A stretch of 64,000 nt of DNA from an uncultured Pseudomonadales bacterium (GCA_964513845.1 CAZENT010000004.1:13392-77391); one strand, 5' to 3'; counted from the stretch's first letter, positions 24,399 through 64,000 are shown. Notes: generated from the sequence alone by a model not told the origin. Program-made: numbers and translations.

Positions 24399-24400
24399 CT

Positions 24401-25582
24401 ATGGAAAAACTTCCCATCGCTGTTGTTGTCATCCCTACTTACAACGAGGCCGAGACGATAGGAGAAATGATCGACACTCTTTGTGCCAAAGTTTTTCCTA
24501 AAATCAAAGACTACCAGTGCAAACTTTTGGTAGTGGACGACACTTCTCCAGACGGCACTTACAAAATTGTTCAAGCCAAGCAGAAAAAATACTCAAATCT
24601 TGAGCTTTATTTGAATCCCACCAAAGCCGGAATCGGCGGAGCGTATGTCAAAGGCTTCAGACATGCCATGTCCGCTCTCAAGGCCGATGTCTTGATCGAA
24701 TTCGATGCAGATTTTCAACATCCACCCAAAGACATTCCGGTTTTACTCAAAGAAATTTCCAATGGTTATGACTATGTTTTAGGATCACGCAAAATTAAAG
24801 GTGGTAGTAATCCCAAAGGCTGGGGTTTCAAACGAGTCTTTTTTAGTGAAGCCGGCGGTATGGTCGCCAGACTAGTTCTTTTCTTCCCTTCCAAAATGTT
24901 CTTCAAGATTACCGACCCTACCACGGGCCTCAAAGCTTCTCGGGTCAAAGGCTTTGTTGATACTATGGACATGGATCATTTGTATTCCAGAAGTTTTGGC
25001 TACAAGCTTGAGTTTCTTTACAAAATGGTTCAGCTTGGAGCCAAGGTCAAAGAAATTCCACTCAAGTTCGGACTTCGCACCAAAGGCGAGTCCAAGATCG
25101 AGCCCAAAACAGCTAAGGATGTATTTCGTTCCGTCTTTCTTCTTAGATGGTCAGATCCTACCACCAAGAAATTTATCAAATTCGGCTGCATCGGTCTTTT
25201 TGGCTTTGTCATCAACAAAGTCGGTTTAGATGTTTTTGCCAAAGGACTCCAAAATTTGATCAATACCGTTGGTGTCAGAAACTTTGTGGCCAATGCTCTC
25301 GCCGCCGAAGTATCTATCATCAGCAACTTTATTCTTAACAATCTTTGGACTTTCAAAAACGAGAAACTTATCTGGGGCAAAAAACTCATTCAAAAATTTG
25401 CCACCTTCAATCTCAGCTCTGTTATTTCCGGCATCATTATTCCTAGTATCATTATCGGAGCCGGTACCCAAATTTTTGGAGATCAATATCGCTTCCTCTT
25501 CCTCGTCATTGCCGTGTTCTTCTTCACTGTTCCCCTCAACTGGTTCATCTACAACCTCATCATCTGGAAGAAAAAGAAATAA
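24401..25582 (+). CDS. Polyprenol-phosphate glycosyltransferase (GT2, DPM1/ArnC/GtrB-like) fused to GtrA-like C-terminal membrane domain
   Basis: N-terminal VVIPTYNE...VVDDTSPDGT...DADFQHPP GT2 signature. C-terminal 4-TM GtrA-like region (KFIKFGCIGLFGFVINKVGLDVF...). Confidence 0.8.
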   Translation: MEKLPIAVVVIPTYNEAETIGEMIDTLCAKVFPKIKDYQCKLLVVDDTSPDGTYKIVQAKQKKYSNLELYLNPTKAGIGGAYVKGFRHAMSALKADVLIEFDADFQHPPKDIPVLLKEISNGYDYVLGSRKIKGGSNPKGWGFKRVFFSEAGGMVARLVLFFPSKMFFKITDPTTGLKASRVKGFVDTMDMDHLYSRSFGYKLEFLYKMVQLGAKVKEIPLKFGLRTKGESKIEPKTAKDVFRSVFLLRWSDPTTKKFIKFGCIGLFGFVINKVGLDVFAKGLQNLINTVGVRNFVANALAAEVSIISNFILNNLWTFKNEKLIWGKKLIQKFATFNLSSVISGIIIPSIIIGAGTQIFGDQYRFLFLVIAVFFFTVPLNWFIYNLIIWKKKK

Positions 25583-25619
25583 CTTTATATTCGGGTAATC
25601 TATGGTATATACTTGATTA

Positions 25620-26300
25620 ATGTCATGGATATTTTTGGATGAAAGTGGCCAATTTTTCAAAAATGAAAAACAAAAATATTTTGTAGTTGGGTCTTTTACA
25701 ACTGGTAATCCAAATAGAACTAAAAAAGGATTTAAATCTTGGCAAACTCAAAAATTTCCCAAAAAACAAAAAGGTCAGTCAGAAATAAAGTTTTCAGACA
25801 TAAAAATTGATGATAAATTAAGAATCAAAACCCTGAATCATTTGTCTGGTCTTGATATCAGAATCATGTATGTTTTTCTATTAACAGACAATATTCCAAG
25901 CGAATATCGTAAAAAAAATAAAGTTGTTGACACTGGGTTGCTTTATGTAAATGTAATAGGTGAACTGTTAGAGATGTATCTTCCTTGTACAGACAAAGAG
26001 TTTAGAATTTTTTGTGACAAGCGTCACCTTAAAGGTATTACAACCTCTGAATTTAAAAAGTTGTTAACAAACAGACTTTCTCCTCAATTACCATCATCAA
26101 CAATTGTTCAAATTGAAATGATTGATTCAACTACAAATCCAAATATTCAAATTGCTGATTGGATTTCAAGTGCTTTAGGTAGATCGTTTAATGGAGGAGA
26201 AATGGGGAGTGAATGCAAATTATCTCTTAAAAACAATATTGTTTCAGAAAAAGAATTATTTAAAGATTATTGGGCAAAAAAACAAAAAACTCGAACTTAA
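25620..26300 (+). CDS. DUF3800-family protein
   Basis: N-terminal IFLDESG and C-terminal QIADWISSAL blocks match the DUF3800 signature. Markedly AT-rich codon usage relative to neighbours. Followed by its own terminator. Confidence 0.6.
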   Translation: MSWIFLDESGQFFKNEKQKYFVVGSFTTGNPNRTKKGFKSWQTQKFPKKQKGQSEIKFSDIKIDDKLRIKTLNHLSGLDIRIMYVFLLTDNIPSEYRKKNKVVDTGLLYVNVIGELLEMYLPCTDKEFRIFCDKRHLKGITTSEFKKLLTNRLSPQLPSSTIVQIEMIDSTTNPNIQIADWISSALGRSFNGGEMGSECKLSLKNNIVSEKELFKDYWAKKQKTRT

Positions 26301-26314
26301 TCGAGTGTTTTGTT
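26290..26314 (+). terminator. Rho-independent terminator-like hairpin (CTCGA-acttaa-TCGAG + TGTTTTGTT)
   Basis: 5-bp GC-containing stem overlapping the DUF3800 stop, followed by T-rich run. Sits at a convergent gene junction. Confidence 0.4.
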
Positions 26315-26471
26315 AGAAGCAGCGTCTTTCAAAGTGGTTTTCTTCGACTTTTGTTCCGGATTCTCCGGAGGAACACCAAAGCACTTAGAAAGTTATTATT
26401 GCTAGCCTCTGTCAACATAATATGACAAGGTAAGGTGAATGTCAAGTCACAGGCACAAAAAGATGCAAAAA

Positions 26472-27587
26472 TTACAAATACGGAGCCCAGTCGGCAATTG
26501 GAGCCAGATTATTCAATAAGAAGTTCCAGCTAAATAAAAGTATCGGGATGGTCAAGATTGCCATCACAATCTTGAACTCTTTTTTCTGAATCAAGCTATC
26601 CCAGCCAATTAGAACAAATGGCGCGATAGGTAGTATGTAGCGGCTTATATCACGGTGTGCCACAGTCAGAGTAGCCAGGAAAAACAATCCAGAAAAATAC
26701 ATCTCGATATTCATTTTTTTCTCCTTCAGTTTGGCGATCCCCAAGCCAAAGATTAGCCATGTCCAGATCACGTCTTCCAGCCAGAAGTTACCCACCCAGA
26801 ACTGACCCTTTGGGGCAAAGATCGAGAACGGTGGCCAAAAAAGATGAATATTGTCCCCACTATTAAAGTAAGCCCAAAAGTCACCCGTTCGTATTCCAAA
26901 AAAACCAAACAAACCAAAGATAGCCAAAAACTGAATCATCAAGGGAGCATATTTAAACTGAATTTTCTTAAGTTTGATAGACTCCACCAAGGCGAATAAT
27001 CCGTAAGCACCAAGCAAAATAATCGCCGGACTCTTAGTCAATTGGGCGAGGGCTCCAAACAATCCCGCCAGCCAAAATTTTTCTTTACGAAAGTAAAAAA
27101 TACTGGCAATTATAAAAAGCAAAAACCAGGGTTCAGGAGAGCCAATACTGCGCACCGCCACCCAGCGAGCCGGCAAGATCAAGAAAACCAAACATAGCCA
27201 AAGTGGATTTTTACTGAAGCCAAACTCTTTTAGATACCTAAAAAGCATCAAGAAACACAAAACCGATCCCAGTAGTGTAGCCAAAAGCATCGCCGTAGGT
27301 CCCTTTAGTACCGAGTCAAATACGGAGATAATGGCAGGATATAAAGGGAAATGCGCCGGGTAATACTCAGCCGGTAGGGGACTAGAAAATTTACTCTTTA
27401 TTGCTTCGATGTTGTACCAAGTTTTTTCGACGATCAAGTAATTCGGTCCATCATAATTTTGCCATAGAATTTTTGATCCAACCGAAAAATCCATACCCCA
27501 TCCAGGTAGTTGTATCTTGGTGATAAAGGGCAACCAAACAACAAGGGAAAATAGGATAACGGCGATAGCTAAATATAGGCGTTTCAT
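26472..27587 (-). CDS. Polytopic membrane protein, putative GT-C-fold glycosyltransferase (GT87/DUF2029-like)
   Basis: >=9 predicted TM segments. Start placed at MKRLYLAIAVILF (27587) rather than the upstream extension to 27671. Minus strand within a plus-strand array. Confidence 0.5.
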   Translation of the reverse strand: MKRLYLAIAVILFSLVVWLPFITKIQLPGWGMDFSVGSKILWQNYDGPNYLIVEKTWYNIEAIKSKFSSPLPAEYYPAHFPLYPAIISVFDSVLKGPTAMLLATLLGSVLCFLMLFRYLKEFGFSKNPLWLCLVFLILPARWVAVRSIGSPEPWFLLFIIASIFYFRKEKFWLAGLFGALAQLTKSPAIILLGAYGLFALVESIKLKKIQFKYAPLMIQFLAIFGLFGFFGIRTGDFWAYFNSGDNIHLFWPPFSIFAPKGQFWVGNFWLEDVIWTWLIFGLGIAKLKEKKMNIEMYFSGLFFLATLTVAHRDISRYILPIAPFVLIGWDSLIQKKEFKIVMAILTIPILLFSWNFLLNNLAPIADWAPYL

Positions 27588-27607
27588 GTACCTATTAGTA
27601 TATACTT

Positions 27608-28324
27608 GTGAGTATGACGAGACAAATAGAAAAATTGTCCGTGTTTTTGCCGGCATACAACGAAGAGGCAAACTTACAACGGACAGTCAAAAACGTAATC
27701 GAAAATCTCCAAAAAAACGTTTCCGAATGGGAAATAGTTATCGTTGATGATGGTTCAAAAGACAAAACCGGTGCCATTGCCGATTTGCTTGCCAAAGAAA
27801 ACAAAAAAATCTCCGTCATTCATCATTCTCCCAACAGAGGTTATGGTGCCGCCTTCAAAAGCGGCCTTTATGGCTGTAAATATCCTTGGATTTCTTTTAT
27901 CGACTCCGACGGCCAGTTCAATTTCAAAGAAATTGGTAGGTTCATCGACACCCAAGAAAAAACCCAAGCCGACATGGTCATTGGTTACTATCTCAAACGA
28001 AAAGTCCCTTTTACTCGCATTCTAAACTCCAAAACCTGGCAGTTCATCGTTTATCTTCTTTTTGGTCTTAACGTTCGCGATATTGACTGTGGTTTCAAAC
28101 TAATCTCCAAAAAAGTAGTTGACACTATTCCCAAGCTCGAAAGCGAAAGGGGAGCCTTTATTAGCTCCGAATTCCTGATCAAAGCCAAAAAAGCCGGTTT
28201 CAAGATTGTCGAGATTGGCGTTCAGCACTATCCTCGCAAATTTGGAGAAGCCACCGGTGCCAAGCTAAACGTTATTGTCCAAAGCTTTATTGACCTGTTT
28301 ACACTTTGGCGAAAAATAAAATAA
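27608..28324 (+). CDS. GT2 glycosyltransferase (polyprenol-phosphate sugar transferase-like)
   Basis: SVFLPAYNEE...IVIVDDGSKDKT...DSDGQF DxD-type GT2 motifs. 238 aa, no TM domain. Confidence 0.8.
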   Translation: MSMTRQIEKLSVFLPAYNEEANLQRTVKNVIENLQKNVSEWEIVIVDDGSKDKTGAIADLLAKENKKISVIHHSPNRGYGAAFKSGLYGCKYPWISFIDSDGQFNFKEIGRFIDTQEKTQADMVIGYYLKRKVPFTRILNSKTWQFIVYLLFGLNVRDIDCGFKLISKKVVDTIPKLESERGAFISSEFLIKAKKAGFKIVEIGVQHYPRKFGEATGAKLNVIVQSFIDLFTLWRKIK

Positions 28325-28328
28325 TGTA

Positions 28329-28364
28329 TTCGTCATCCTTGCGAAAGCGGGGATCTATATAAAA
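28329..28364 (+). repeat. Conserved intergenic hairpin + TATATAAA motif, copy 3 (loop GAAA)
   Basis: TTCGTCATCCTTGCGaaaGCGGGGATCTATATAAAA. ATG of next gene follows immediately at 28365. Confidence 0.6.
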
Positions 28365-29840
28365 ATGTTAAATTTCATCAAAAAAAATAAGCGCGAGTTT
28401 GTTTTTTTACTGGCAATTTTATTGTTGGCTCTCTTTCTTCGGCTGTTCAGAATTGAAGGTTTTATGACCTTCTTGGGTGATGAGGGTCGTGATGTTCGTA
28501 TTGTTCGCGATCTTATTACCGAAGGCAATCTAGTATTTATCGGACCCCAAACCAGTGTAGGCAACATGTATCTCGGCCCCCTCTATTACTACATGATGGC
28601 CCCTCCTCTCTTTCTTTCCGGTCTAAATCCAGTCGGTCCGGCAATCATGATCGCCTTACTAAGTGTACTTACCGTCTGGCTCACCTGGTATGTTGCAAGA
28701 AAATGGTTTGGCAGAGAAGCCGCAATTATTGCCGCTCTTTTATATGCCGTGTCACCCGTTGCCATCATCTATGGCCGAACTTCCTGGAACCCAAACCCTA
28801 TGCCTCTGTTTTCTCTTCTCTGTATCTGGGGAATTTACGAGGTTTGGCAGAACAAAAAATATTATTGGTTGCCATTAATTGGTATTTTTTACGCTTTCGC
28901 CATTCAGATGCACTATCTTGCCCTTCTTCTTTTACCAACTCTTGGCTTGTTTTGGTTTCTCACTTTCCAAAAATTACGAAAAGAAAAATTACCTATCAAT
29001 AGCTTCTATAAAAATTCTTTATTCGCTCTAATTGGATTTCTCTTACTCATGTCTCCTTTGGTTCTTTTTGATATCAAACATCAAGGATTAAATTTCAAAG
29101 CCTTTAGCTCTCTCGTCTCCGCCAAGTCTGGAGTTTTCAATCTTAGTCATCTTCTTTTCAAACCATTTTCCGTTTTATCACTTGTTTTCTCATCTCTTTT
29201 GTTTGGTGACGAAAAACCAAAAGTTTTTCTTTCAATCTTTCTTTGTCTGATTCCCGCTATTTTTCTTGTCAGCAATAGAACACAAAAACACATCAAGCTC
29301 ATCGCCTCTTGGGTACTTTTTACTCTTCTTGGATTAAGTCTATACAATCAGTCAATTTACATCCACTATTTGGGAATAATTTACCCTGCCGTTTTTATGC
29401 TCTCAGGAGCGATCATTTCTCAAATATTAAAAAAAGGATCGTTTCTTAAATATCTATCTCTCGTCTTACTAACAGTAATCGTTGTGAACGATCTAAGACT
29501 TAGTCCCACTTTTGGCAATCCCAATCGTCAGCTCCAGCGTACCGAACAGGTTGCTGATCTCATAATCAAAGAGTCAAAAGGGGAGCCGTTTAACTTAGGG
29601 CTTATCTCCAAACAAAACTACGACGAGTCATATCGCTACTTCCTGGAAAACAAAAAAGCCTCTCTCGAAAAAGATCAAAATAAAATTACGGACCAACTCT
29701 TCGTTATCTGCGAAGATGGAGATGAGTGCAAACCTCAAGGGCACTCTCAGTATCAAATAGCCGTTTTTGGCATTGCCCATATCGATAAAGTGTGGCAAGT
29801 AGGTTACATCAAAATTTATCGACTAATACACACAAAATGA
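28365..29840 (+). CDS. GT-C membrane glycosyltransferase, ArnT/PMT_2-like (subfamily A1)
   Basis: First-loop acidic motif FLGDEGRD, GP.TS.GN..LGPLYYY, GRTSWNPNPMPL block shared with 47912, 54651(-) and 63214 paralogues. 11+ TM. Confidence 0.7.
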   Translation: MLNFIKKNKREFVFLLAILLLALFLRLFRIEGFMTFLGDEGRDVRIVRDLITEGNLVFIGPQTSVGNMYLGPLYYYMMAPPLFLSGLNPVGPAIMIALLSVLTVWLTWYVARKWFGREAAIIAALLYAVSPVAIIYGRTSWNPNPMPLFSLLCIWGIYEVWQNKKYYWLPLIGIFYAFAIQMHYLALLLLPTLGLFWFLTFQKLRKEKLPINSFYKNSLFALIGFLLLMSPLVLFDIKHQGLNFKAFSSLVSAKSGVFNLSHLLFKPFSVLSLVFSSLLFGDEKPKVFLSIFLCLIPAIFLVSNRTQKHIKLIASWVLFTLLGLSLYNQSIYIHYLGIIYPAVFMLSGAIISQILKKGSFLKYLSLVLLTVIVVNDLRLSPTFGNPNRQLQRTEQVADLIIKESKGEPFNLGLISKQNYDESYRYFLENKKASLEKDQNKITDQLFVICEDGDECKPQGHSQYQIAVFGIAHIDKVWQVGYIKIYRLIHTK

Positions 29841-30376
29841 GCTTCACTAACGGAAAATTAATTTGGATTGATCTCGAAATGACTGGCTTAGATCCCGATA
29901 AAGACAAGATAGTTGAGATAGCAACTATCATTACCGACGCCAATCTCAATGTCCTCGCCGAAGGCCCTGATCTGGTTGTTAATCAACCGTCGGAAGTAAT
30001 CAGCAACATGATTCCTTGGAATCAAGAACATTTTGCCGAGTCAGGATTGCTCAATGAGATTCACGACTCAAAAATTTCTCTTGCCGAAGCCGAAGAACAA
30101 ACGCTAGCATTTTTAAGACAACACAGCCCATCAAACACCGCCATTTTTGCCGGCAACTCTGTCTACATTGATCGTGAGTTCATTCGCATCCACATGCCCA
30201 AGTTGGCCGCCTTTGTCCATTATCGAATCATTGATGTCAACACTGTTAGGGAGCTAGCACTTCGCTGGTATCCCAGCTTACCGCCTTTCCACAAAGAAGA
30301 AGCCCATCGATCTCATGATGACATTCTCGAGTCCATAGATGAGTTAAAATATTACAAGGAAAAGGTCTTCAAATAA
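29837..30376 (+). CDS. orn: Oligoribonuclease (DEDDh 3'-5' exonuclease)
   Basis: LIWIDLEMTGLDP (Exo I), FAGNSVYIDREF (Exo II), HRSHDDILESI (Exo III, catalytic H). ATGA overlap with upstream gene. Confidence 0.85.
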   Translation: MSFTNGKLIWIDLEMTGLDPDKDKIVEIATIITDANLNVLAEGPDLVVNQPSEVISNMIPWNQEHFAESGLLNEIHDSKISLAEAEEQTLAFLRQHSPSNTAIFAGNSVYIDREFIRIHMPKLAAFVHYRIIDVNTVRELALRWYPSLPPFHKEEAHRSHDDILESIDELKYYKEKVFK

Positions 30377-30379
30377 TTT

Positions 30380-42331: not shown

Positions 42332-42332
42332 T

Positions 42333-43250: not shown

Positions 43251-43498
43251 TATTTTTCTAAAAACCATAAAACCATCCATTTCGAACGAGTTGCTTCGCA
43301 TGCGCGTCGTAGGATTCTTTCGAATTCTTATAAAAAGTGGCGAGATAGGCACGCTTGACGACTGCCTAGATTGAGACCACATAATATGAGAAAGAAGACT
43401 ACAGCGACCGATGCATTAGTGAGAAATGTGGTGGTGAGTGGTTTAGGGAAATATTATTTATCTGATAAGTCAGCTTTGATATACACTATAATTAATCA

Positions 43499-46820: not shown

Positions 46821-46850
46821 ACTGCATAATTAGAATAGAATAGTAACTAC

Positions 46851-49468: not shown

Positions 49469-49469
49469 T

Positions 49470-51737: not shown

Positions 51738-51767
51738 TCTAACATTAAGATTGATATACTTAGAAAG

Positions 51768-56219: not shown

Positions 56220-56248
56220 AACAAAAATGTATACAATAACACTATACT

Positions 56249-58243
56249 ATGATTATGTTCTTAATTAACTTAATTATTTTTCTTCTCATTGCTTTTCCGG
56301 GGCTCTATTTTATTGGGAGGCTGATAATTTCCAAAATCTCCTCACAAATTTCTCCTTTGGAAAAATTATTTCTCTCAATTATTTTTGGCATCGCCTTTGT
56401 TATTTTAGAAACCATCGTCACTGGTTTTTTAAAGATTCGTTTTTTAAGTCTTCCCTTAATTATTTCTCTTGTCTTAATCGGAATAATTAAATATCGTCAA
56501 GATTTTACTTCTTCAATATCAGCTCTTCTTAAATCCAAATCTCTTGTCTTCATGATTTTGTTAAGCATTGTCATCCTTGGCATGATGAACTTTCCTTCAG
56601 GAATTAAATCGTCCAATGGTCTAAATTTCTTCAGTTCTCAGGGTCACGATGGTCTGTGGCATGTCTCTTTGATGGAAGAGATCAAAGTCGCCTTTCCTCC
56701 CGCCCAGCCTCTTTATGCCGGTCATCCACTAAAAAACTATCACTTTATCAGTGATATTTTTATGGGTGAGTTTTACCGACTGGTTCCCTTTCTAAGCGCT
56801 CTCGATTTATACTTCCGTTTTTACCCAATACTGTTTGCGTTTTTAATTAGTCTTGGGGTTTATTGCTTTGTCTTCCGATTAAAGAACCATCAAGCAGCCC
56901 TCTGGGCCATGTTCTTTACTTCTTTTTGTGGCAGTTTTGGTTATGTCTACGCCATAATCAAGCATCAATTTATTTTTTCCGGTGAAACCACCTTTTGGGC
57001 CTCTCAGGGGAATACTATTCTTGGAAATCCACCTCACGCTTTGGGAATAATTTTACTAACAACAGTACTGCTTCTATTAACTCTCTTTCAAAAATTTAAA
57101 AACAAAAACTTCTTATATCTTTTATTGCTAATCTCCTTTTCTATGGCCGGTGTAAAAGCATCGTCCGGAGTCATCTGCGTTGCTGGTTTACTGGCAGTCG
57201 GTTTTCTAAGATTTGTTTTGGAAAAGAAAAAAGACCTTGGAATTATTGGTGTTCTTGTTGCAGCTGGGAATTTTTTGACCTTAAAAATTATCAGCCCAAC
57301 GGCCGAGTCATTTATTGTCTTCAATCCATTGTGGTTCCCTCACACCATGATGGTAGTCAGGTTGGATAACGTTGACTGGGAGCTCAGAAGACAGCACTAT
57401 GTTTCACTACATAACTTTAAGGCCTTTATTCATCTGATTCTTCACGAAGCTTACGCCATCCTAATTTTTATTGTTGGCAACACCGGTATGCGCCTTATTG
57501 GTTTGTATGAAGCAGTCAAGTTAAATTTCAAAAAAATATCCTACCCCTACATTTTTATGCAAACTGGAATTTTGGCTTCGCTCACCATAGTCTTGCTCTT
57601 TGTTCAAAATGGAATAACTTACAACCATATTCAATACATCCAAATTTATCTTCACTTCATGGGTATTTTTGCCGGAATAACTATGGCCATTATTATCGAA
57701 AAGTTTAAAAATGTTCGGACAAAAATAATATTTGCTGTTATCGTTATTGCTCTCGCAACCCCCACGGTAATTGGTAATCAATTTGATTTTTATGGTCCAG
57801 GGAAAAAGCCTCTTTCGTATGTCTCAAATCAAGAGTTGGATGCTCTAAATTGGATAAAAAATAACACCGACAAAGATGCCGTCATCTTTACCAAACCTTT
57901 TGATAAAAATGCACACTATGGTTTCACCAGCCACCCCTTACCCATCTCAGCCTGGTACTCCACCATGTATGTTCACAGCATTTCCACAAGAAGAACTTAT
58001 CTCACCGCAGAAGAACAGTTAGGTATCACTGGCTACAAGATTGAGGAAGACGTCAAAAACATGAAAAAATTTATGATGCAAGATGATATCGAGTATGACA
58101 AAAACTATTTAATCCAAAATAATATCGATTACCTATATTTTAGAAAAGATGAGCTCAAAAATCCCATTCTAGTTGACCAAATCGGCCTTTCAAGAGTTTA
58201 TGAAAATCAAGAGGTAATAATTTACAAAAATGAAAATAACTAA
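56249..58243 (+). CDS. Polytopic membrane protein of GHDxxxHLSL family (putative GT-C glycosyltransferase)
   Basis: QGHDGLWHVSLMEEIKVAFPP...PLKNYHFISDIFMGEF block. ~14 TM plus C-terminal soluble domain. Confidence 0.55.
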   Translation: MIMFLINLIIFLLIAFPGLYFIGRLIISKISSQISPLEKLFLSIIFGIAFVILETIVTGFLKIRFLSLPLIISLVLIGIIKYRQDFTSSISALLKSKSLVFMILLSIVILGMMNFPSGIKSSNGLNFFSSQGHDGLWHVSLMEEIKVAFPPAQPLYAGHPLKNYHFISDIFMGEFYRLVPFLSALDLYFRFYPILFAFLISLGVYCFVFRLKNHQAALWAMFFTSFCGSFGYVYAIIKHQFIFSGETTFWASQGNTILGNPPHALGIILLTTVLLLLTLFQKFKNKNFLYLLLLISFSMAGVKASSGVICVAGLLAVGFLRFVLEKKKDLGIIGVLVAAGNFLTLKIISPTAESFIVFNPLWFPHTMMVVRLDNVDWELRRQHYVSLHNFKAFIHLILHEAYAILIFIVGNTGMRLIGLYEAVKLNFKKISYPYIFMQTGILASLTIVLLFVQNGITYNHIQYIQIYLHFMGIFAGITMAIIIEKFKNVRTKIIFAVIVIALATPTVIGNQFDFYGPGKKPLSYVSNQELDALNWIKNNTDKDAVIFTKPFDKNAHYGFTSHPLPISAWYSTMYVHSISTRRTYLTAEEQLGITGYKIEEDVKNMKKFMMQDDIEYDKNYLIQNNIDYLYFRKDELKNPILVDQIGLSRVYENQEVIIYKNENN

Positions 58244-59891
58244 ACAGACATTTTTACTTGTTTTGGTTTTGTTGCTAGCTTTGTTTTTAAGGCTTTATCA
58301 GCTAGACAAAATACCCGCATCGCTTTTTGGCGACGAAATGGATGTTAGTTATCAAGCCTGGTCACTGGGAACCACGGGTAGAGACTACATGGGCAATCTC
58401 TTACCAACCTTTCTTCATAGTTTTTCAGAATGGCGCACTCCATTGCTCTCATATATCCTTTCTCCCCTTATGGCCATCTTTGGCCCTTCAACTCTTTCTG
58501 TTCGTATTCCGACCGCTCTCCTGGGAGTCTTGAATATTTATCTAATCTATCTTTTTTTTCAAAAGTTATTACCCAAATACAAGCAGTTCTCAATTCTCGC
58601 CGCTTTTATTCTTTGTATTTCCCCCTGGCATATTCATTTTTCCAGGATTGCCTTCGACTCAACTCTTCTCTTAAATCTCTATTTGCTCGGGACGATCTTA
58701 CTTCTTGATGGCAAATTCGCTCTTTCTTTGCCCGTATTAATTCTGACTTTATACACCTACCCAACTGCCAATATTTTTACTCCACTATTAATTGTTGCTT
58801 CATATTTAATTTTCCGTCCAGCCATAAATTTTAAAAAGCATTTATTTGTCTATCTTTTATCTTTTGCGTTAATCATTCCCATTTCGGTCAATATTTTCAC
58901 TGGCTCAGCCTCAGGTAGATTTAGTGGCATTAGTATTTTTGCAGATACCAAATTAACCGACTCAATCGTCACCGCTCGTACCGAATCTTGGGTAGTGGGA
59001 AACAAAATAGAGCCAATTTTCCACAACAAGCCGATTGCATATCTAAACACCTTCGTCAACCAGTATGTCTCCGCTTTTTCTACAAACTTCTTGTTTGTTA
59101 GTGGTGATCCAAATTTTAGACACTCAATAGGGGAGTTCGGAGAGTTCTATATATTCTTTGCTCCATTGTTATTTATTGGTTTTTTCTCTTTATTATCTCG
59201 GCTAGGTGACCCCAAGGCACGTTTCATATTAGCGTGGCTGATACTTGCTCCGGTTCCATCTGCCCTTACTCAAGGAGGGGGATCACACGCCATCAGATTA
59301 ATTATTTTGCTTCCAGCGCTGGTTACTCTTTTTACCCTAGCACTGGTCGATATCACTGACTTCCTAAAAAAATCCAATTATAAAAAAATATTTATTCTTT
59401 CCTTCATATTTTTGTCATTACTGGCCACAACATTTTACTGGCATCGCTACTCCAGTCACTATCGCTATTTATCACAAAGACACTGGCAATATGGCTATGA
59501 AACAGTCATGACCAACCTTCCCAGAATGGAAGAAACAAACAGGTTGTTTATCAACAATACATACGAACCATCACTATTAAAATATTTGTACTATTCCAAG
59601 TTTCCTCCCAAAGAGTTCCAAAAAATATTTGTTGACGACATAACTAAAACTTCGATAGTTCCAGGTTTTGATGGTTTTCGCTTGGGCGACAATATCTTCT
59701 TTGGCTCAATTCAGCCAGGTGTGTATTTAGACACCCTGCTTCAATCAGGAGATATGTATATTGCTTCTCAAAGAAAAGAAATTCCAGGAGATCAAGACTG
59801 GTCAAAGAATCCACCGTTGACCATTAGTGTTGTAAGTATTTCATACGATACTTATGGTGTGCCTTTGTTCACCGTTATCAAGCGGAAATGA
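58230..59891 (+). CDS. GT-C membrane glycosyltransferase, ArnT/PMT-like (subfamily A2), tandem copy 1
   Basis: FGDEMDVSYQAWSLGTTGRD...EWRTPLLSY first-loop motif of ArnT/PMT family. Confidence 0.7.
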   Translation: MKITKQTFLLVLVLLLALFLRLYQLDKIPASLFGDEMDVSYQAWSLGTTGRDYMGNLLPTFLHSFSEWRTPLLSYILSPLMAIFGPSTLSVRIPTALLGVLNIYLIYLFFQKLLPKYKQFSILAAFILCISPWHIHFSRIAFDSTLLLNLYLLGTILLLDGKFALSLPVLILTLYTYPTANIFTPLLIVASYLIFRPAINFKKHLFVYLLSFALIIPISVNIFTGSASGRFSGISIFADTKLTDSIVTARTESWVVGNKIEPIFHNKPIAYLNTFVNQYVSAFSTNFLFVSGDPNFRHSIGEFGEFYIFFAPLLFIGFFSLLSRLGDPKARFILAWLILAPVPSALTQGGGSHAIRLIILLPALVTLFTLALVDITDFLKKSNYKKIFILSFIFLSLLATTFYWHRYSSHYRYLSQRHWQYGYETVMTNLPRMEETNRLFINNTYEPSLLKYLYYSKFPPKEFQKIFVDDITKTSIVPGFDGFRLGDNIFFGSIQPGVYLDTLLQSGDMYIASQRKEIPGDQDWSKNPPLTISVVSISYDTYGVPLFTVIKRK

Positions 59892-59914
59892 ATAACTAAC
59901 ATATAATTATCTCA

Positions 59915-61567
59915 ATGCGTAAGTGGCTACCTCTCATTCTCATCACTCTACTCGCCGGAATTCTCCGATTTACTGCTTTGGGAACAATGCCTCCTTCTCC
60001 CAACTGGGATGAAGTAAGTCATGGCTACAATGCCTACTCAGTTCTCCAAACTGGCAAGGATGAATGGGGCAAAAGCTTTCCTATTATTTTCAGGGCGTTT
60101 GGAGACTACAAGCTGCCTCTCTATATTTATCTTTCCACCATCCCTGTCGCCATCTTTGGTCTGAGTGTTTTTTCTGTCCGCTTTATTTCTGCTCTTGCTG
60201 GCACTCTAGCTATTCCCGGTATTTATTTTCTCATTTCTGTTCTTTTCCCCGGGAAACATCTCACCATCAAAAACAAAAAAATTGGTTTAGGACTACTCGC
60301 CGCTCTGTTTCTCGCCATCCTTCCTTGGCATTTCTTTTTAAGTCGTCCGGCACTAGAGGCCAATCTGGCTCTCACTCTCATAATTTTTGGCTCATATTAT
60401 TTAATCAAATTAAGATATCTGCCAGCATCAATTCTTTTTAGTTTGTCTTTACACACTTACAATACCGAAAGAGTTTTTGTCCCAGCGATACTACTATTTT
60501 TCTTTTTAATCTTCCGCCCCAAGATTATTTTCAAATTAACTACCCTGATCGCAACTATATTTCTTTCTCTCTCGGTAATCCTTGTGGGCTTCGAAGTTCT
60601 AACAGGTGTCGGAACCGCTCGTTATGACAAGCTAAAAATCTTGTCTCCCAGTGTCGTCTTCCAGATAGGGCAGAAGCGAACACTAAGCACTCTTCCCAAA
60701 CCCCTTCCAACACTTCTTTATAATCGCCCTCTTTATTTTGTAAAAAATATTTTTGTTAATTATTTAGAATATTTCTCACCCAAGTTTATTCTTCAACAAA
60801 AAGGTTCACACTCTCAGTTTGCAATTCCCAATCACAATTTATTTACTTGGCCGATACTGATTCTCGCCATTTTTGGGATAGGGTACTGTGTCCTTCACCT
60901 AAAAGAAAAAGGTTCTCAGTTTCTCTTGGCCTGGCTCTTTTTATCCCCCCTTGCCGCTTCACTTACCACCGATCCTCCTCAAGCCATCAGGCCGAACCCC
61001 ATGATTCCAGCCATTGTTTGTTTGTCTGTTTTAGGGTTTTTCTACCTCACCAATAAGTACTCAAAATTCGTTCTTCATTTATGTTTATTATTTATCGGCG
61101 CCATTATTATCTCTTTTGGTTTATATCAAAAAGATTATTACACCACCTATGCCAAAGAATACTCCGCTTCATGGCAGTATGGTTACGAACAAGTTTTTCA
61201 ATACATAAAAGAAAATCAAAATAAATATAAAAATATTTTCATCACCAAAAAGTATGGCGAACCCCACATTTTTTACGCTTTCTTTAATAAATTAAATCCG
61301 GCCTTAGTCCAACCGGGGGACAATAATATCCGTTTTAATCAATCTGATTGGTTTTGGACAGACAAAATTGCAAATGTCTATTTCGTTAACGACTGGGATA
61401 TCCCGGACACGGATGTATATCAGTTAAAACTTGAAAGTGGTTCGACGATTTCCACCACCAATGGTCTTTTGATCAGCTCAGATCACGCTCCCAAAAACGC
61501 CAACGTTCAGAAAACGATATTCTTCCTAGACGGAAAAACAGCTTTTACAATAATCGCGCTACCATGA
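59915..61567 (+). CDS. GT-C membrane glycosyltransferase, ArnT/PMT-like (subfamily A2), tandem copy 2
   Basis: NWDEVSHGYNAYSVLQTGKDEWG...FGDYKLPLYIY. Confidence 0.7.
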   Translation: MRKWLPLILITLLAGILRFTALGTMPPSPNWDEVSHGYNAYSVLQTGKDEWGKSFPIIFRAFGDYKLPLYIYLSTIPVAIFGLSVFSVRFISALAGTLAIPGIYFLISVLFPGKHLTIKNKKIGLGLLAALFLAILPWHFFLSRPALEANLALTLIIFGSYYLIKLRYLPASILFSLSLHTYNTERVFVPAILLFFFLIFRPKIIFKLTTLIATIFLSLSVILVGFEVLTGVGTARYDKLKILSPSVVFQIGQKRTLSTLPKPLPTLLYNRPLYFVKNIFVNYLEYFSPKFILQQKGSHSQFAIPNHNLFTWPILILAIFGIGYCVLHLKEKGSQFLLAWLFLSPLAASLTTDPPQAIRPNPMIPAIVCLSVLGFFYLTNKYSKFVLHLCLLFIGAIIISFGLYQKDYYTTYAKEYSASWQYGYEQVFQYIKENQNKYKNIFITKKYGEPHIFYAFFNKLNPALVQPGDNNIRFNQSDWFWTDKIANVYFVNDWDIPDTDVYQLKLESGSTISTTNGLLISSDHAPKNANVQKTIFFLDGKTAFTIIALP

Positions 61568-63213
61568 AAAAATACTGGATATTAATCAGCATTCTATTAC
61601 TCGCCACCTTTTTAAGATTTTACTCACTAGATAAATTTCCCATCGGGCTAAATGCAGACGAAGCCGCTCTTGGATACAATGCTTACTCGCTTTTAGAAAC
61701 CGGCAAAGATGAACATGGTGTGGCTTGGCCATTAGTTTTTCGCTCTTTCGACGATTACAAGCCTCCGCTTTATGTCTATCTCGCCATTCCGTTTGTCAAA
61801 GTACTTGGCTTAAATGTTTGGGCTGTTCGTCTTCCTTCAGCTATTGCAGGAGTGCTCACTGTTCTCCTTGTCTATCCTTTAGTCAATGCTCTAAAAATCT
61901 TTACGGAAAAGAAAAAAAATAAAACGTTGGCTCTTGTTTCTGCCTTTTTACTCGCTGTATCTCCTTGGCATCTTCATTTTTCCAGGGGCGCATGGGAAGT
62001 AAATGTCAGCACGTTTTTACTTGTCTTAGGAGTTTATGGCTTTGTCCTCGGGTTAAAAAACTCAAAGTTCTATTCTCTTTTTAGTATATCTTTTGCTTTA
62101 AGTCTATTTACCTATCACTCAGCTCGCATTATTGCGCCATTACTGGTTGTTGCCCTGGTGCTAATTTATCGCCGTACACTATTTAATAAAGAAAATCTCA
62201 AAGGTTTTATTATTGCCTCGATTTTAGGTCTTGCTCTTTCTCTTCCAGTTGTTCTTCAACTTACCTCCAAAGAAGGTCAGTCAAGATTTTCCGGAGTGTC
62301 CATTTTTGCCGATACCGGCCCATTGTCTTACGTACTGGAACAACGTCGTATCGATCCTCATCCTGATTCTTTGATAACCAAAATCAAATTCAATCGTTAC
62401 ACTGCCTATGCTGGTTATTACGCTAGAAATTATTTATCTCATTTCAGCCCCAACTTTCTCTTTATCTCAGGAGACGTCATCGATCGAAGTCGTGTTCCGG
62501 GATTTGGTCAAACCTACTCAGTTCTTTCTCTCTTTTTAATTATCGGCTTCGTTGCGTTATTGGTCAAAAGTTCTTTAGGTGGAAAAGTTGTTCTAGCCTG
62601 GTTTCTTTTGGCACCTGCCGCCGCCGCTCTTACTTTCCAGTCTCCTCACGCCCTTCGTTCTCAGAACGAAGTCATTTCGCTTAGCATTATTTCTGCTTAT
62701 GGCCTAATTCTGGTCGCAACCGTATTTTATAAATTAAAAAACAGAATCTTGCCCTCGATATTATTGTTTGGTTACATTTTTGTTTTTGCTTTTCAAATCA
62801 AAAACTATCTTCACTCATATTATCTGACTTACCCGAACGAACTCCCCATTGCTTGGCAGTACGGGTTCGACCAAATCGCCAGTTACACCAAAAACAATTA
62901 CAGCAAATATGACTACATCATTATTTCTGATCGCTACGATCAGCCTTACATTCTCATCGCCTTTTTCCAAAAATATCCACCCCAATCTTTGCAAAAAGAG
63001 CTTGTCATGGGTCCAATCGATAACTTTGGTTTTTCAACAGGGAGAAAATTAGGCAAATACCAGTTTAGAAAAATTATTTACGACAAAGACAAAAAACTTC
63101 CCAACACCCTTCTTATTTCAGCAGACGAAAAAGTAGACGACACCAAGGTGATCAAAACCATCGCGTCTCCCGACGGTACTATCCTTTTCAAATTTATCTA
63201 TACAAATAAATAA
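61564..63213 (+). CDS. GT-C membrane glycosyltransferase, ArnT/PMT-like (subfamily A2), tandem copy 3
   Basis: NADEAALGYNAYSLLETGKDEHG...FDDYKPPLYVY. Colinear with the two upstream copies. Confidence 0.7.
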   Translation: MKKYWILISILLLATFLRFYSLDKFPIGLNADEAALGYNAYSLLETGKDEHGVAWPLVFRSFDDYKPPLYVYLAIPFVKVLGLNVWAVRLPSAIAGVLTVLLVYPLVNALKIFTEKKKNKTLALVSAFLLAVSPWHLHFSRGAWEVNVSTFLLVLGVYGFVLGLKNSKFYSLFSISFALSLFTYHSARIIAPLLVVALVLIYRRTLFNKENLKGFIIASILGLALSLPVVLQLTSKEGQSRFSGVSIFADTGPLSYVLEQRRIDPHPDSLITKIKFNRYTAYAGYYARNYLSHFSPNFLFISGDVIDRSRVPGFGQTYSVLSLFLIIGFVALLVKSSLGGKVVLAWFLLAPAAAALTFQSPHALRSQNEVISLSIISAYGLILVATVFYKLKNRILPSILLFGYIFVFAFQIKNYLHSYYLTYPNELPIAWQYGFDQIASYTKNNYSKYDYIIISDRYDQPYILIAFFQKYPPQSLQKELVMGPIDNFGFSTGRKLGKYQFRKIIYDKDKKLPNTLLISADEKVDDTKVIKTIASPDGTILFKFIYTNK

Positions 63214-64000
63214 ATGACTCGATTTTTTGCCAATAAAACCGTTCGAATTATTCTTGCCATTACCTTAGTTTCCGTTTTCTTTTATTTATTTCGGCTCCAA
63301 GATACCCAGCTATTTATCAACGACACTTCAAGGGACACTCTGCGAGCCCTGCGCATCTGGCAGGGGAGAGAAACCACTCTAATTGGAGCCTCTGCTTCTT
63401 TTAGTGAAAAAACGATTAAAGAAATTTATTTCGGCTCCCTTTATCTTTACACTGCGATTGCTGGTATGTTTTTCTCAGAGTTCAGTCCGCTCGGTGCAGT
63501 CTACCCGAACACTATTTTTTACACTCTCTCGATTCCTGTTTTCTATCTTCTTGCTCAGCGTTACTCAAACAAAAAATTCTTTACCATCTTTTCCACGCTT
63601 CTCTACGCTCTTTCACCGATTACGGTTACCCACGCTCGATTTTTCTGGAATCCAAATTTACTCATTCCGCTATCTGTCTTTTTTTGGTACCTAGCTCTTT
63701 CACCAGCCAATTCGAAACATTTTTCACTTAAGTTATTATCTTCCGGAATTCTAGCGGGAATAATGTTTAATTTTCATTATTTTTCTATTATTCCGGTCGC
63801 TTTTTTCTGCCTATATTTGCTCTTATCCAAAAAATTTGATCACTTACTTTATCTCGCTTTTGGCTTTTTCCTTGGCAGTTTCCCCTTAATTCTTTTTGAA
63901 CTAAAAAACAACTTTTATCTCTCAAGTGCCTTTATCTACAATTTCAGTCAGGGAATTAAAGGAATTTCTCACCCGTTCATTTTCTATGTTGATTCATTTT
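63214..64000 (+). CDS. GT-C membrane glycosyltransferase, ArnT/PMT_2-like (subfamily A1), 5' partial (runs off window end)
   Basis: ATG at 63214 directly after previous stop. TSRDTLRALRI, ARFFWNPNLLIPL block matches the 28365/47912 proteins. No stop before 64000. Confidence 0.6.
   Translation, partial: MTRFFANKTVRIILAITLVSVFFYLFRLQDTQLFINDTSRDTLRALRIWQGRETTLIGASASFSEKTIKEIYFGSLYLYTAIAGMFFSEFSPLGAVYPNTIFYTLSIPVFYLLAQRYSNKKFFTIFSTLLYALSPITVTHARFFWNPNLLIPLSVFFWYLALSPANSKHFSLKLLSSGILAGIMFNFHYFSIIPVAFFCLYLLLSKKFDHLLYLAFGFFLGSFPLILFELKNNFYLSSAFIYNFSQGIKGISHPFIFYVDSF

Follow-up and report, generated by a model that had tools for sequence, protein, structure and literature searches.

For Gram-positive wall polymers, a scheme is established in which a GT-A C55-P-sugar synthase works with a GtrA- or Wzx-type flippase and a GT-C enzyme with an extracellular DxD motif (PMC8035078), and a three-part GT-A, flippase and GT-C mechanism is established for streptococcal protein O-glycosylation (PMC11092751). 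No paper describing a locus of the present kind was found. An ORF listing with Pfam and NCBIfam scans of positions 24401-64000 of the window (the whole 64-kb stretch of DNA analysed) showed 17 polytopic GT-C-type genes, 8 GT2 genes, 1 GT4 gene and a Wzx flippase gene, which reproduced almost exactly the inventory claimed in the sequence-only reading over about 40 kb. In a small-genome Microgenomates (CPR/Patescibacteria) bacterium, the region probably serves as a single conserved factory for cell-surface glycan, a reading that builds on the observed families, folds, acidic motifs, gene order, class conservation and mosaic variation, and that proposes donor identities, a division of labour between the glycosyltransferase families and an acceptor.

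A large proportion (95.5%) of the bases in 24401-64000 belonged to glycosylation genes, and GT-C genes alone made up 72%. The genes mostly abutted or overlapped by 4-29 nt, and all ORFs were intact, with lengths of 226-1060 aa (Table 1). An independent assembly (L086, run SRR29243430) was collinear with window positions 46255-63998 over 17.7 kb at 98.2% nucleotide identity, a contig from a third run matched 55711-59598 at 100%, and two more relatives were also syntenic with the locus. The last ORF as earlier given was revised; its ATG is now placed at 63214 and it is cut by the window end, while in the 98%-identical L086 contig it runs to 496 aa with a PMT_2 match of 31.0 bits, over the cutoff. 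About 4.6 kb more of the locus, comprising the rest of this gene, a GT2, a GT4 and a 377-aa PMT_2 gene, lies beyond the window end, and with this extension the full locus has 18 GT-C genes on about 44 kb. Two non-glycosylation genes were found within the locus, an exonuclease gene (29792) and a DUF3800 gene (25620), the latter probably an insertion.

Table 1 Genes of the locus and the upstream rml genes, with positions in the window and supporting matches
Position	Strand	Assignment	Evidence
17472-18212, 18216-19214, 19214-20107	+	RmlA-like, RmlB-like, RmlD-like	Pfam NTP_transferase 198 bits; GDP_Man_Dehyd/Epimerase 273/228 bits; RmlD_sub_bind 114 bits
24401-25582	+	GT2 fused to GtrA/DPMS-type transmembrane domain	Pfam Glycos_transf_2 97.8 bits, GtrA_DPMS_TM 41.4 bits
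25620-26300	+	DUF3800	Pfam DUF3800 53.9 bits; GC 0.29 against about 0.40 in neighbours
26472-27671	-	Probable GT-C membrane protein, weakest of 17	Pfam PMT 20.9 bits (cutoff 22.7 not reached); about 6 TM segments
27608-28324	+	Short GT2, ArnC/DPM1-resembling	Pfam Glycos_transf_2 116 bits
28365-29840	+	PMT_2-type GT-C	PMT_2 54.1 bits; about 10 TM segments; D39 conserved
29792-30376	+	RNase_T/DnaQ-like exonuclease	Pfam RNase_T 103.8 bits
30380-31141	+	Short GT2, ArnC/DPM1-resembling	Glycos_transf_2 98.4 bits; ArnC top NCBIfam match, E 2e-16
31128-32627	+	PMT_2-type GT-C	PMT_2 39.7 bits; D36-E37 conserved
32617-34344, 34337-36022, 35994-37700	+	PTPS_related GT-C, tandem paralogues	PTPS_related 32-54 bits
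37684-39156	+	Wzx/MOP-family flippase	Polysacc_synt_3 175 bits; NCBIfam MOP flippase 118 bits and O-glycosylation Wzx 114 bits, both under cutoffs
39149-42331	+	Fusion protein, 1060 aa	Signal/TM segment, barrel with beta-sandwich, GHD-family GT-C domain
42303-43250, 43499-44410, 44392-45216	+	GT2	Glycos_transf_2 / Glyco_tranf_2_3 matches; 43499, TIGR01556 rhamnosyltransferase E 9e-18, under cutoff
45213-46820	+	GHD-family GT-C, short form	No Pfam match; 26% identity with 56249 (E 3e-33); about 10 TM segments; D35, W38, H39, N64-Y65-H66 conserved
46851-47915	+	GT4 (GT-B fold)	Glycos_transf_1 82.7 bits
47912-49468	+	PMT_2-type GT-C	PMT_2 29.7 bits; 25% identity with 28365 (E 3e-22)
49470-51815	-	YfhO-family GT-C	YfhO 71.5 bits
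51768-52637, 52634-53458	+	GT2	Glycos_transf_2 79.8 and 63.8 bits; 52634 rhamnosyltransferase-like, TIGR01556 E 1e-14
53455-54654	+	GT87-like GT-C	Homologues at 37-87% identity with PF09594 (GT87) and PF26314
54651-56219	-	PMT_2-type GT-C	PMT_2 27.1 bits
56249-58243	+	GHD-family GT-C, long form (modelled protein)	GT-C membrane domain and AglB-like C-terminal globular domain
58230-59891, 59915-61567, 61564-63213	+	PMT_2-type GT-C, tandem paralogues	PMT_2 27.5, 16.9 (under cutoff) and 34.5 bits
63214-64000	+	PMT_2-type GT-C, 5' part	D37..D41 conserved

The GT-C candidates were distributed into 8 PMT_2-type genes, 3 PTPS_related, 3 of the GHD family, 1 YfhO, 1 GT87-like and 1 weaker candidate, with 15 calls well supported and 2 weaker or indirect. 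Each of the 17 had, across its homologues, a conserved Asp (DD, DE, HD or DxxxD) shortly past its first membrane helix. Profile searches on Pfam and NCBIfam placed the membrane proteins in PMT_2/PMT, PTPS_related, YfhO and GT87, as the earlier reading expected, and returned no transporter family match. The PTPS_related trio showed mutual identities of 29-35% with the DD motif and Q..RW conserved, and 35994 additionally matched PMT_2 (33 bits) and, weakly, GT-C_AftD. Gene 59915, under the Pfam cutoff on its own, was assigned through its 30-33% identity with both neighbours; 58230, 59915 and 61564 share that level of mutual identity and a conserved R..DE..D motif, and 61564 also matched PMT (24.4 bits). 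Two GT87-like genes had been proposed. The 53455 protein itself had no Pfam match, and its GT87-like assignment stood through its homologues, one of which has the NCBI name "glycosyltransferase 87 family protein" and among which H26-D28 was invariant; 26472, on the other hand, was just a probable GT-C and no close paralogue of 53455 (hhalign probability 7%). It matched the NCBIfam AZOBR_p60025 "cell surface glycopolymer formation" domain (E 1.9e-12), and N72/D74 were conserved among only 5 homologues.

The GHD family is the name given here to three Pfam-less paralogues with the motif GHDGxWH, namely 45213, 56249 and the C-terminal half of 39149. The structure model of 56249 showed a confident GT-C fold, which bore out the proposed class, with best structural matches to the oligosaccharyltransferases (OSTs) AglB, STT3 and PglB, further matches to AftA, AftB, AftD and PimE, and matches to transporters only at E > 0.1. 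Residues D134, H138, H165, E246 and R415 were invariant. No Pfam STT3 match and no PDB sequence match was obtained. The fusion protein 39149 consisted of an extracellular glycoside-hydrolase/deacetylase-like barrel with beta-sandwich (aa about 24-486) and a GT-C domain (aa about 490-1060), neither half having a Pfam or PDB sequence match. The N-terminal domain model (pLDDT 88) gave 3lm3 (putative GH/deacetylase, E 6e-15) as best Foldseek match, followed by CE4 deacetylases, GH57 and GH38, while the C-terminal half was 27% identical to 56249 (E 5e-45) with H553-D554..H558 conserved. GHD-family fusions of about 1000-1160 aa were recurrent.

Several DPM1/ArnC-like donor enzymes had been claimed among the eight GT2s; three (24401, 27608 and 30380) look like polyprenol-phosphate sugar synthases, while the remaining five resemble ordinary cytoplasmic nucleotide-sugar transferases, some of them rhamnosyltransferase-like. 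The best NCBIfam matches of 24401 were PgfS, ArnC, AglJ and PpgS, and those of 27608 were ArnC (E 3e-20), PgfS, Dol-P-hexose transferase, AglJ and PpgS, each under its cutoff. Across the locus genes all NCBIfam matches were far under the family cutoffs, so that sugar specificities cannot be read off. Two GT2 genes directly preceded a GT-C gene (27608 before 28365, and 30380 before 31128 with an overlap of 14 nt). The dTDP-rhamnose genes reported upstream were confirmed for RmlA-, RmlB- and RmlD-like genes, but no RmlC or cupin ORF was found within the window. From their proximity and the rhamnosyltransferase-like GT2s, we infer that the rml genes may supply a dTDP-6-deoxyhexose to the locus. 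The 64-kb window and the related loci examined yielded no WecA/TagO- or WbaP-type phosphoglycosyl transferase for priming, and no recognisable Wzy, LCP ligase or separate GtrA flippase; these gaps, like the missing RmlC, count against the glycan factory reading.

The same kind of locus was found in 50 Microgenomates species; its GT-C genes numbered a median of 8 per 22 kb, and at the median 89% of a locus matched glycosylation genes of the window. In the 50 species loci, the GHD gene had PTPS_related within 10 kb in 49 cases, GT2 in 48, Wzx in 46 and GT4 in 41, and GHD and these families form the conserved core. The GT-C expansion is a trait conserved across Microgenomates and not peculiar to one genome. 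As to whether the locus is conserved or strain-variable, the core was largely shared across the 50 species, while PMT_2, GT87-like and YfhO genes were gained or lost among close relatives. Inside one locus, orthologue identity to L002 (an 86%-identity relative) ranged from 42% to 86%; the YfhO gene 49470 was only 42% identical there and was cleanly deleted in L085, an 81%-identity relative, and no 54651 orthologue was found in L002. The commonest accessory gene of the related loci was a SAM methyltransferase (24 loci).

In the glycan factory proposed here, a few lipid-phosphate sugar donors would serve many outward-facing transferases. At the inner membrane face, the DPM1/ArnC-like GT2s would load single sugars on polyprenyl phosphate, while the five other GT2s and the GT4 would draw on nucleotide sugars, among them the dTDP-6-deoxyhexose of the rml genes, to assemble an oligosaccharide on a lipid carrier. 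The Wzx flippase would move lipid-linked intermediates to the outer face, possibly with a contribution from the GtrA-like membrane domain of 24401. Outside, the lipid-linked donors would be used by the GT-C enzymes, 17 in the window and 18 over the full locus. The likeliest role of the OST-shaped GHD and the PTPS_related enzymes, nearly always found with Wzx, is to polymerise the exported unit or to pass it to the final acceptor, judged by co-occurrence and fold only, and the variable PMT_2, GT87-like and YfhO enzymes may add single-sugar branches. Gain, loss or replacement of GT-C genes among close relatives would then change the displayed glycan. The acceptor may be a polysaccharide linked to the wall, surface proteins rich in Ser/Thr, or both.

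A locus devoted mainly to PMT- or Pgf-like protein O-glycosylation, in which GT-C enzymes act from polyprenyl-phosphate donors on Ser/Thr-rich disordered stretches of secreted or wall-anchored proteins, is possible but not the expected outcome. Eight GT-C genes had PMT_2/PMT matches, PgfS was the top NCBIfam match of 24401, and in S. mutans the GT-A PgfS and YfhO-type GT-C enzymes glycosylate membrane proteins and adhesins anchored in the cell wall at their Ser/Thr-rich regions (PMC11092751). The PMT_2 family is broad, however, and transferases acting on wall polymers and on lipid A also belong to it (Table 2 of PMC8035078). Candidate acceptors are present upstream in the window, which encodes a 1983-aa LPATG adhesin, a sortase, an LTD protein with S/T/P-rich linkers and a poly-Thr-tract protein, but in none of the 50 related loci did the 10 kb around the anchor gene contain an LPXTG or Ser/Thr-rich ORF, a span too short to show associations over 30-40 kb such as those in the window. 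The conserved core of Wzx with several cytoplasmic GT2/GT4 enzymes also argues for a lipid-linked oligosaccharide or polymer rather than single sugars on protein.

In mycobacteria, EmbA-C, AftA-D, MptA-C and PimE use two lipid-phosphate sugar donors to make arabinogalactan and lipoarabinomannan. That the GT-C set likewise builds a lipoglycan anchored in the membrane, or a heteropolysaccharide of the wall, wholly outside the cell and sugar by sugar is unlikely, yet this reading overlaps strongly with the glycan factory reading, the main difference being how much is built outside. Just 3 putative lipid-sugar synthases for 17-18 GT-C enzymes, which counts against the factory reading, fits the mycobacterial logic, and so do the GT87-like (PimE family) genes, the Aft and PimE structural matches and the weak AftD match of 35994. 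Against it, no decaprenyl-phosphoarabinose pathway homologue was seen, and the conserved block of Wzx and cytoplasmic GT2/GT4 suggests that the glycan is partly put together inside the cell beforehand.

More doubtful still is an ER-like or archaeal-like lipid-linked-oligosaccharide pathway, started by cytoplasmic GT2/GT4, flipped by Wzx, extended outside by GT-C enzymes from polyprenyl-phosphate sugars (as by ALG3/9/12/6/8) and transferred en bloc to protein or wall by the OST-shaped GHD enzymes. The analogous parts are all there (a DPMS-like GT2 with a DPMS membrane domain, a MOP flippase and many GT-C enzymes), and GHD genes occur together with Wzx as above, but the missing STT3 and PDB sequence matches and the missing priming enzyme speak against it, and every locus protein lacked a WWDYG-like motif. 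The OST-like shape is not diagnostic, since the ArnT periplasmic domain also resembles that of OSTs. Finally, an artefact or misreading (assembly chimera, decayed duplicates or transporters), to which per-gene GC of 0.34 to 0.43 across the array and several proteins without a first-pass Pfam match might point, is refuted by the independent collinear assemblies and the GT-C fold, with the intact ORFs, the unmatched transporter families and GT-C paralogues only 21-37% identical, hence old and maintained, making it wholly implausible.

The glycan factory of Microgenomates stands as the probable reading, and the claim that its GT-C count lies far above that of a typical bacterium held, as three GT-A/GT-C pairs are reported in B. 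subtilis or L. lactis (PMC8035078) against 17 GT-C enzymes here.

The ORF and Pfam inventory of the window, which is gene-dense with roughly 40% GC, showed 29 ORFs from position 24401 to the window end, mostly on the plus strand, with neighbouring genes abutting or overlapping by 4-29 nt. Glycosylation genes covered 95.5% of the stretch 24401-64000, and GT-C-like genes covered 72%. The counts of the sequence-only reading (17 GT-C genes, 8 GT2 genes, 1 GT4 gene and a flippase) were reproduced. The features are listed in the table, in which PMT_2 scores are read against a curated cutoff of 26.1 bits and PMT scores against 22.7 bits. Genes are named by their start in the window.

Features of the glycosylation locus and its upstream region (window coordinates)
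Feature	Start or span	Strand	Score or remark
LTD-domain protein	6325-7470		S/T/P-rich linkers, C-terminal anchor
TsaE	7822-8259
TsaD/TsaB-like fragment	8362-8688		short, 108 aa
SpaA/SdrD-type protein	8828-14779		1983 aa, LPATG at residue 1953
Poly-Thr protein	14780-15751		TTTTTTTTT (poly-Thr) tract
Sortase	15752-16324
RmlA, RmlB, RmlD-like genes	17472-20107
Secreted/membrane-anchored protein	20107-20883		no family match
Secreted/membrane-anchored protein	20870-21235		no family match
SurA/PrsA-like gene	21263-21991
zf-CDGSH iron-sulfur protein	24123-24398
GT2 (Pfam)	24401, 27608, 30380, 42303, 43499, 44392, 51768, 52634
DUF3800	25620-26300		GC 0.29
Hairpin	26289-26306
GT-C, probable	26472	(-)	PMT 20.9 bits, under cutoff
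PMT_2	28365		54.1 bits, over cutoff
RNase_T/DnaQ-like 3'-5' exonuclease	29792-30376
PMT_2	31128		39.7 bits, over cutoff
PTPS_related (Pfam)	32617, 34337, 35994
MOP/Wzx flippase (Pfam)	37684
GHD family, GT-C by predicted fold	39149, 45213, 56249
Predicted ectodomain of 39149	39149-40600		aa 24-486 of 1060
GT4 (Pfam)	46851
PMT_2	47912		29.7 bits, over cutoff
YfhO	49470-51815	(-)	71.5 bits, cutoff 28.5
GT87-like	53455
PMT_2	54651	(-)	27.1 bits, over cutoff
PMT_2	58230		27.5 bits, over cutoff
PMT_2	59915		16.9 bits, under cutoff
PMT_2	61564		34.5 bits, over cutoff; PMT 24.4 bits also
PMT_2 (last ORF)	63214		continues past window end; full-length copy on a 98%-identical contig 31.0 bits, over cutoff

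No Pfam match at all was found for 39149, 45213 and 53455, and 56249 produced only weak, sub-threshold matches. NCBIfam searches of the membrane proteins lacking a family gave no match or scores far under the cutoffs. The architecture expected at the GT-C level was present, with a polytopic membrane domain of about 8-13 helices. Alignments with homologues from related loci showed, in all 17 GT-C candidates, an Asp-containing motif (D, DD, DE, HD or DxxxD) conserved at 90% or more soon after the first helix. The motif is predicted to lie extracytoplasmically, and it stands where a catalytic motif is expected in GT-C enzymes (PMC8035078).

Two genes within the locus, the DUF3800 gene and the RNase_T exonuclease gene, are unrelated to glycosylation. 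The former has a lower GC than the adjoining genes (about 0.40), is followed by a hairpin and looks like a recent insertion, while the latter lies between PMT_2 and GT2 genes and overlaps the PMT_2 gene by 49 nt. A zf-CDGSH iron-sulfur protein is encoded just upstream of the locus. A promoter and terminator scan of 23000-42900 gave counts no different from the shuffle level. The tRNA scan found none, so the locus is not a tRNA-flanked island.

A related contig from a different sequencing run (L086) aligned to window 46255-63998 with 98.2% identity and no rearrangement, and this collinearity in an independent assembly ruled out an assembly chimera. Beyond the window end, L086 completes the 496-aa PMT_2 gene and then carries a GT2 gene, a GT4 gene and a 377-aa PMT_2 gene, and the glycosylation block is closed at its far boundary by a DUF433/DUF5615 pair (L086 21628-21989), which looks like a toxin-antitoxin module. 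Since L086 carries these genes on past the window end, the whole locus extends over about 44 kb and contains 18 GT-C, 9 GT2 and 2 GT4 genes and one Wzx.

Two of the GT-C calls were weaker. Many homologues of 53455 (37-87% identity) bear precomputed PF09594 (GT87) and PF26314 annotations; 53455 itself had no Pfam match at E <= 0.01, and its GT87-like profile had no match among PDB sequences. It is the one GT87-like candidate left of the two proposed earlier, as the second, 26472, had no detectable relation to the GT87-like family (hhalign probability 7%). Gene 26472 probably encodes a GT-C enzyme, judging from its PMT match under the cutoff and from the NCBIfam domain named 'cell surface glycopolymer formation' (E 1.9e-12); its conserved Asp motif was read from 5 homologues only.

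All-against-all BLAST united the C-terminal half of 39149 with 45213 and 56249 (E 5e-45, 3e-33 and 3e-14) in one family, named GHD after its motif GHDGxWH. With 56249 as query, a database search gave 158 relatives, whose informative source names were all Microgenomates (Shapirobacteria, Daviesbacteria) or close to them, and an exhaustive profile search gave 1,763 family clusters at 50% identity, which fall into three architectures with lengths of about 560, 660 and 1000-1160 aa. An alignment of 36 members showed that G132, D134, G135, W137 and H138 are invariant in the loop after a membrane helix. Pfam coverage of the family consisted of a weak DUF6541 match in 5 of the 36 members, and the family profile had no GT-C match among PDB sequences, with two spurious matches only. 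Some members carry the automatic UniRef name 'Glycosyltransferase RgtA/B/C/D-like domain-containing protein', and the GT-C nature of individual genes was therefore not wholly unrecognised.

The structure prediction bore out the GT-C assignment. The AlphaFold model of 56249 was confident (pLDDT 90.3, pTM 0.91), and all 26 Foldseek matches with E <= 0.001 were GT-C enzymes, with STT3, AglB and PglB first (1e-9 to 7e-6), followed by DPY19, AftA, ArnT and AftD. Transporters appeared among the matches of 56249 only above E 0.1, by which a transporter identity was ruled out. In the model, a GT-C membrane domain is joined to a mixed alpha/beta C-terminal domain, as in oligosaccharyltransferases (OSTs). 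On the strength of the model and these matches, the GHD family is predicted to be GT-C by fold, with an OST-like overall shape.

Gene 39149 also has an N-terminal portion of 460 residues without sequence match to Pfam families or solved structures. It was modelled as an extracellular domain with a barrel and a beta-sandwich (pLDDT 88), for which the best Foldseek match was the glycoside-hydrolase/deacetylase barrel of PDB 3lm3 (E 6e-15, TM 0.61-0.64), followed by peptidoglycan/polysaccharide deacetylases, GH57 and GH38. The predicted fold thus resembles the BDI_3119-type putative glycoside hydrolase/deacetylase (3lm3) and CE4 polysaccharide deacetylases; unlike in those proteins, the domain of 39149 is joined to a GT-C membrane enzyme. 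Many other GHD-family proteins, 1000-1160 aa long, show the fusion as well, and relatives of the ectodomain also occur as stand-alone proteins in Microgenomates, some tagged PF12979 (DUF3863). The ectodomain may be an active hydrolase/deacetylase or a glycan-binding module alone.

A scan for GHD-family motifs in one genome per GTDB species found 80 loci, and the informatively named ones were all Microgenomates (Shapiro-, Davies-, Woese- and Amesbacteria). When the ORFs of 51 loci of about 22 kb were searched with the window proteins, the median number of GT-C-like genes per locus was 8 (range 5-11), which is a minimum, since additional PMT_2 genes escaped that search. After one duplicate of a Shapirobacteria locus was set aside, the median share of a locus covered by relatives of the window's glycosylation genes was 89% for the remaining 50 loci. 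Within 10 kb of the GHD gene, PTPS_related genes were present in 49/50 loci, GT2 in 48/50, Wzx in 46/50 and GT4 in 41/50, while the variable members were PMT_2 subtypes (26-36/50), GT87-like genes (25/50) and YfhO (20/50). The locus is a trait of the class and not of this genome alone.

With regard to whether the array is conserved or variable, the core is kept across the class and single GT-C genes vary. Identity to the closest species-level relative (L002) ranged from 42% for YfhO and about 50% for 47912 and 51768 to 86% for 56249; 54651 is missing from this relative, which carries an additional PMT_2 gene of 487 aa. In another related locus (L085), the YfhO and 496-aa genes are missing, and an additional PMT_2 gene, in inverted orientation, and a 259-aa gene are present. 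This pattern, with a stable backbone and exchangeable transferases, is typical of surface-polysaccharide loci. Clustering of the non-glycosyltransferase neighbours yielded chiefly a methyltransferase, more PMT_2/GT4 genes and proteins of unknown function, with no LCP ligase or sortase among them. The SAM-dependent methyltransferase was the commonest such neighbour (24 loci, e.g. L063 19925-20578 and L002 244-987), is absent from the window's locus and may methylate the glycan in the species that have it. Many MAG records with the locus (L006, L013-L020 and others) bear the titles 'uncultured Gammaproteobacteria', 'Spirochaetia', 'Clostridia' or 'Bathyarchaeia'; since their locus content is of Microgenomates type, these titles look like placeholder or wrong taxonomy.

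For the sugar donors, the best matches of the GT2 proteins 24401, 27608 and 30380 were polyprenol-phosphate sugar synthases (ArnC, PgfS, AglJ, PpgS and Dol-P-hexose transferase). A GtrA/DPMS membrane domain is also present in 24401, and a PMT_2 gene follows immediately after each of 27608 and 30380. These three DPM1/ArnC-like genes suggest that the GT-C enzymes may use polyprenyl-phosphate-linked donors. The remaining five GT2 proteins look like ordinary nucleotide-sugar transferases from their sequences, and three of them matched a rhamnosyltransferase subfamily weakly. As to the dTDP-rhamnose genes noted upstream of the locus, RmlA, RmlB and RmlD-like genes are present and the RmlC epimerase was not found in the 64-kb window, so that the RmlABCD set is incomplete there; RmlC may be encoded in another part of the genome, or else the pathway yields some 6-deoxyhexose that is not L-rhamnose. 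The interval between the rml genes and the SurA/PrsA-like gene encodes two proteins that are secreted or membrane-anchored.

Components of a Wzx/Wzy-dependent pathway other than Wzx were not found. No priming phosphoglycosyl transferase (Glycos_transf_4, Bac_transf), LCP or Wzz was present in the window or the four annotated related loci, and no recognisable Wzy in the window or the related loci inspected; O_anti_polymase appeared only as a weak secondary match of 61564 (E 0.0027). These components may be encoded in other regions of the genome. A GT-A polyprenol-phosphate sugar synthase, a flippase and GT-C enzymes are all present and adjacent in the locus, and their functional coupling appears likely.

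The LPXTG adhesin and Thr/Pro-rich proteins pointed out upstream as candidate acceptors are indeed present, as the LPATG protein, the LTD protein and the poly-Thr protein. By analogy with Pgf, in which acceptors are Ser/Thr-rich regions of surface proteins, this cluster plausibly comprises acceptors or anchoring genes. No LPXTG or Ser/Thr-rich ORFs were found within 10 kb of the anchor gene in the 50 loci, and the association in the window sits at the 30-40 kb scale, beyond such flanks. Small genes for TsaE and a TsaD/TsaB-like fragment also lie in this region.

In the known logic, a C55-P-sugar is produced by a GT-A enzyme and flipped by a flippase of the GtrA or Wzx type, and a GT-C enzyme transfers the sugar outside the cell (PMC8035078; PMC11092751). 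Combining this logic with the locus content, we infer the donors, acceptors and division of labour as follows: a lipid-linked unit would be assembled in the cytoplasm, Wzx would export it, the core GT-C families would handle the exported unit outside the membrane, and the variable GT-C families would add side branches, supplied by three lipid-phosphate sugar donors. This four-part scheme is the most economical reading; the analysis itself showed the family and fold assignments, the synteny and the variation.

A further reading holds that GHDGxWH marks an unrecognised, essentially Microgenomates-only bacterial OST-like branch and that the locus is a bacterial counterpart of the eukaryotic/archaeal lipid-linked-oligosaccharide pathway. 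The glycan would be assembled in the cytoplasm, moved by the MOP flippase, extended outside by many GT-C enzymes on polyprenyl-phosphate sugars, and finally transferred en bloc to surface proteins or the wall. STT3, AglB and PglB are the best structural matches of the GHD model, for its membrane domain as well as its C-terminal globular domain, and the GHD gene adjoins the MOP flippase and cytoplasmic glycosyltransferases. Unlike OSTs, the GHD family had no STT3 profile match (0/36 members in Pfam), shares only 10-14% identity in the structural alignments, carries the invariant GHDGxWH against DxD in OST, and has additional N-terminal helices in its long form. A regular-expression search found no W[WYF][DE][YFWH][GS] or WWD in any locus protein; in place of WWDYG, W569-Y570..T572 is invariant in the 36-member alignment, and the family was not filed as OST because it is without WWDYG. 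The reading as a whole is considered improbable; if it is true, fast swapping of GT-C genes would diversify the glycans with which these episymbionts attach to hosts or evade phages.

Under the four-part scheme, the class of mechanism is already known. In the literature on glycosyltransferases of CPR, Patescibacteria and Microgenomates, no description of the locus or of the expansion was found. Several features are unusual: 17-18 GT-C genes share one block, the block is conserved across a whole CPR class, and the structural models give it a GT-C family without a Pfam model, predicted to be OST-like in shape and in part fused to a hydrolase/deacetylase-like ectodomain. In CPR/Patescibacteria the genome measures only about one megabase, and most biosynthetic capacity has been lost. 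This lineage retains about 44 kb of outward-facing glycosyltransferases, with the same kind of block in its relatives class-wide, and such investment in small, reduced genomes suggests that the surface glycan is central to the life of the cells, in host attachment, protection or phage avoidance. The locus also brings diverse GT-C enzymes together in a small natural collection that is useful for GT-C specificity studies and glycoengineering. Its families may be among the Microgenomates-enriched protein families of Méheust et al. 2019, which are mostly hypothetical and often membrane-bound (PMC6744442).

Further known systems resemble the locus in part. In mycobacteria, the arabinogalactan/lipoarabinomannan enzymes (EmbA/B/C, AftA-D, MptA-C, PimE and Pmt) include many GT-C enzymes that share few polyprenyl-phosphate donors. 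As proposed for the locus, these enzymes build a complex envelope glycan outside the membrane; the locus has a probable GT87 (PimE-like) member, and the structural matches support the comparison. The mycobacterial genes, however, are spread over a 4-Mb genome instead of forming a single block, their donor pathways are different, and the locus showed no C-terminal carbohydrate-binding domains of the Emb type. The S. mutans Pgf and streptococcal GtrB/PgtC2 O-glycosylation systems (PMC11092751) likewise pair a GT-A enzyme with a GT-C enzyme acting outside the membrane and have LPXTG adhesins encoded nearby. PgfS was the best NCBIfam match of 24401, yet with 57.7 against a family cutoff of 500 bits, and Pgf, unlike the locus, consists of only two GT-C genes along with an epimerase.

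The multi-component systems of Gram-positive bacteria (CsbB/GtcA/YfhO, GtlA/GtlB, L. lactis CsdAB/CD/EF with CflA, and S. pyogenes GacI/J/K/L; PMC8035078) share with the locus a C55-P-sugar GT2, a flippase of the GtrA or Wzx type and a GT-C of the PMT_2 or YfhO type whose acidic motif is extracellular, as well as adjacent GT2 and GT-C pairs and associated rhamnose-type wall polysaccharide genes. The locus differs in having no separate GtrA gene and in its PTPS_related and GHD families, which are not seen in those systems. Known organisms have about 1-3 pairs, usually scattered around the genome (B. subtilis or L. lactis has three GT-A/GT-C pairs; PMC8035078), whereas here a single block of 44 kb in a small CPR genome contains 17-18 GT-C genes with three candidate donor synthases, a number of paralogues beyond that of a typical bacterium, as had been proposed.
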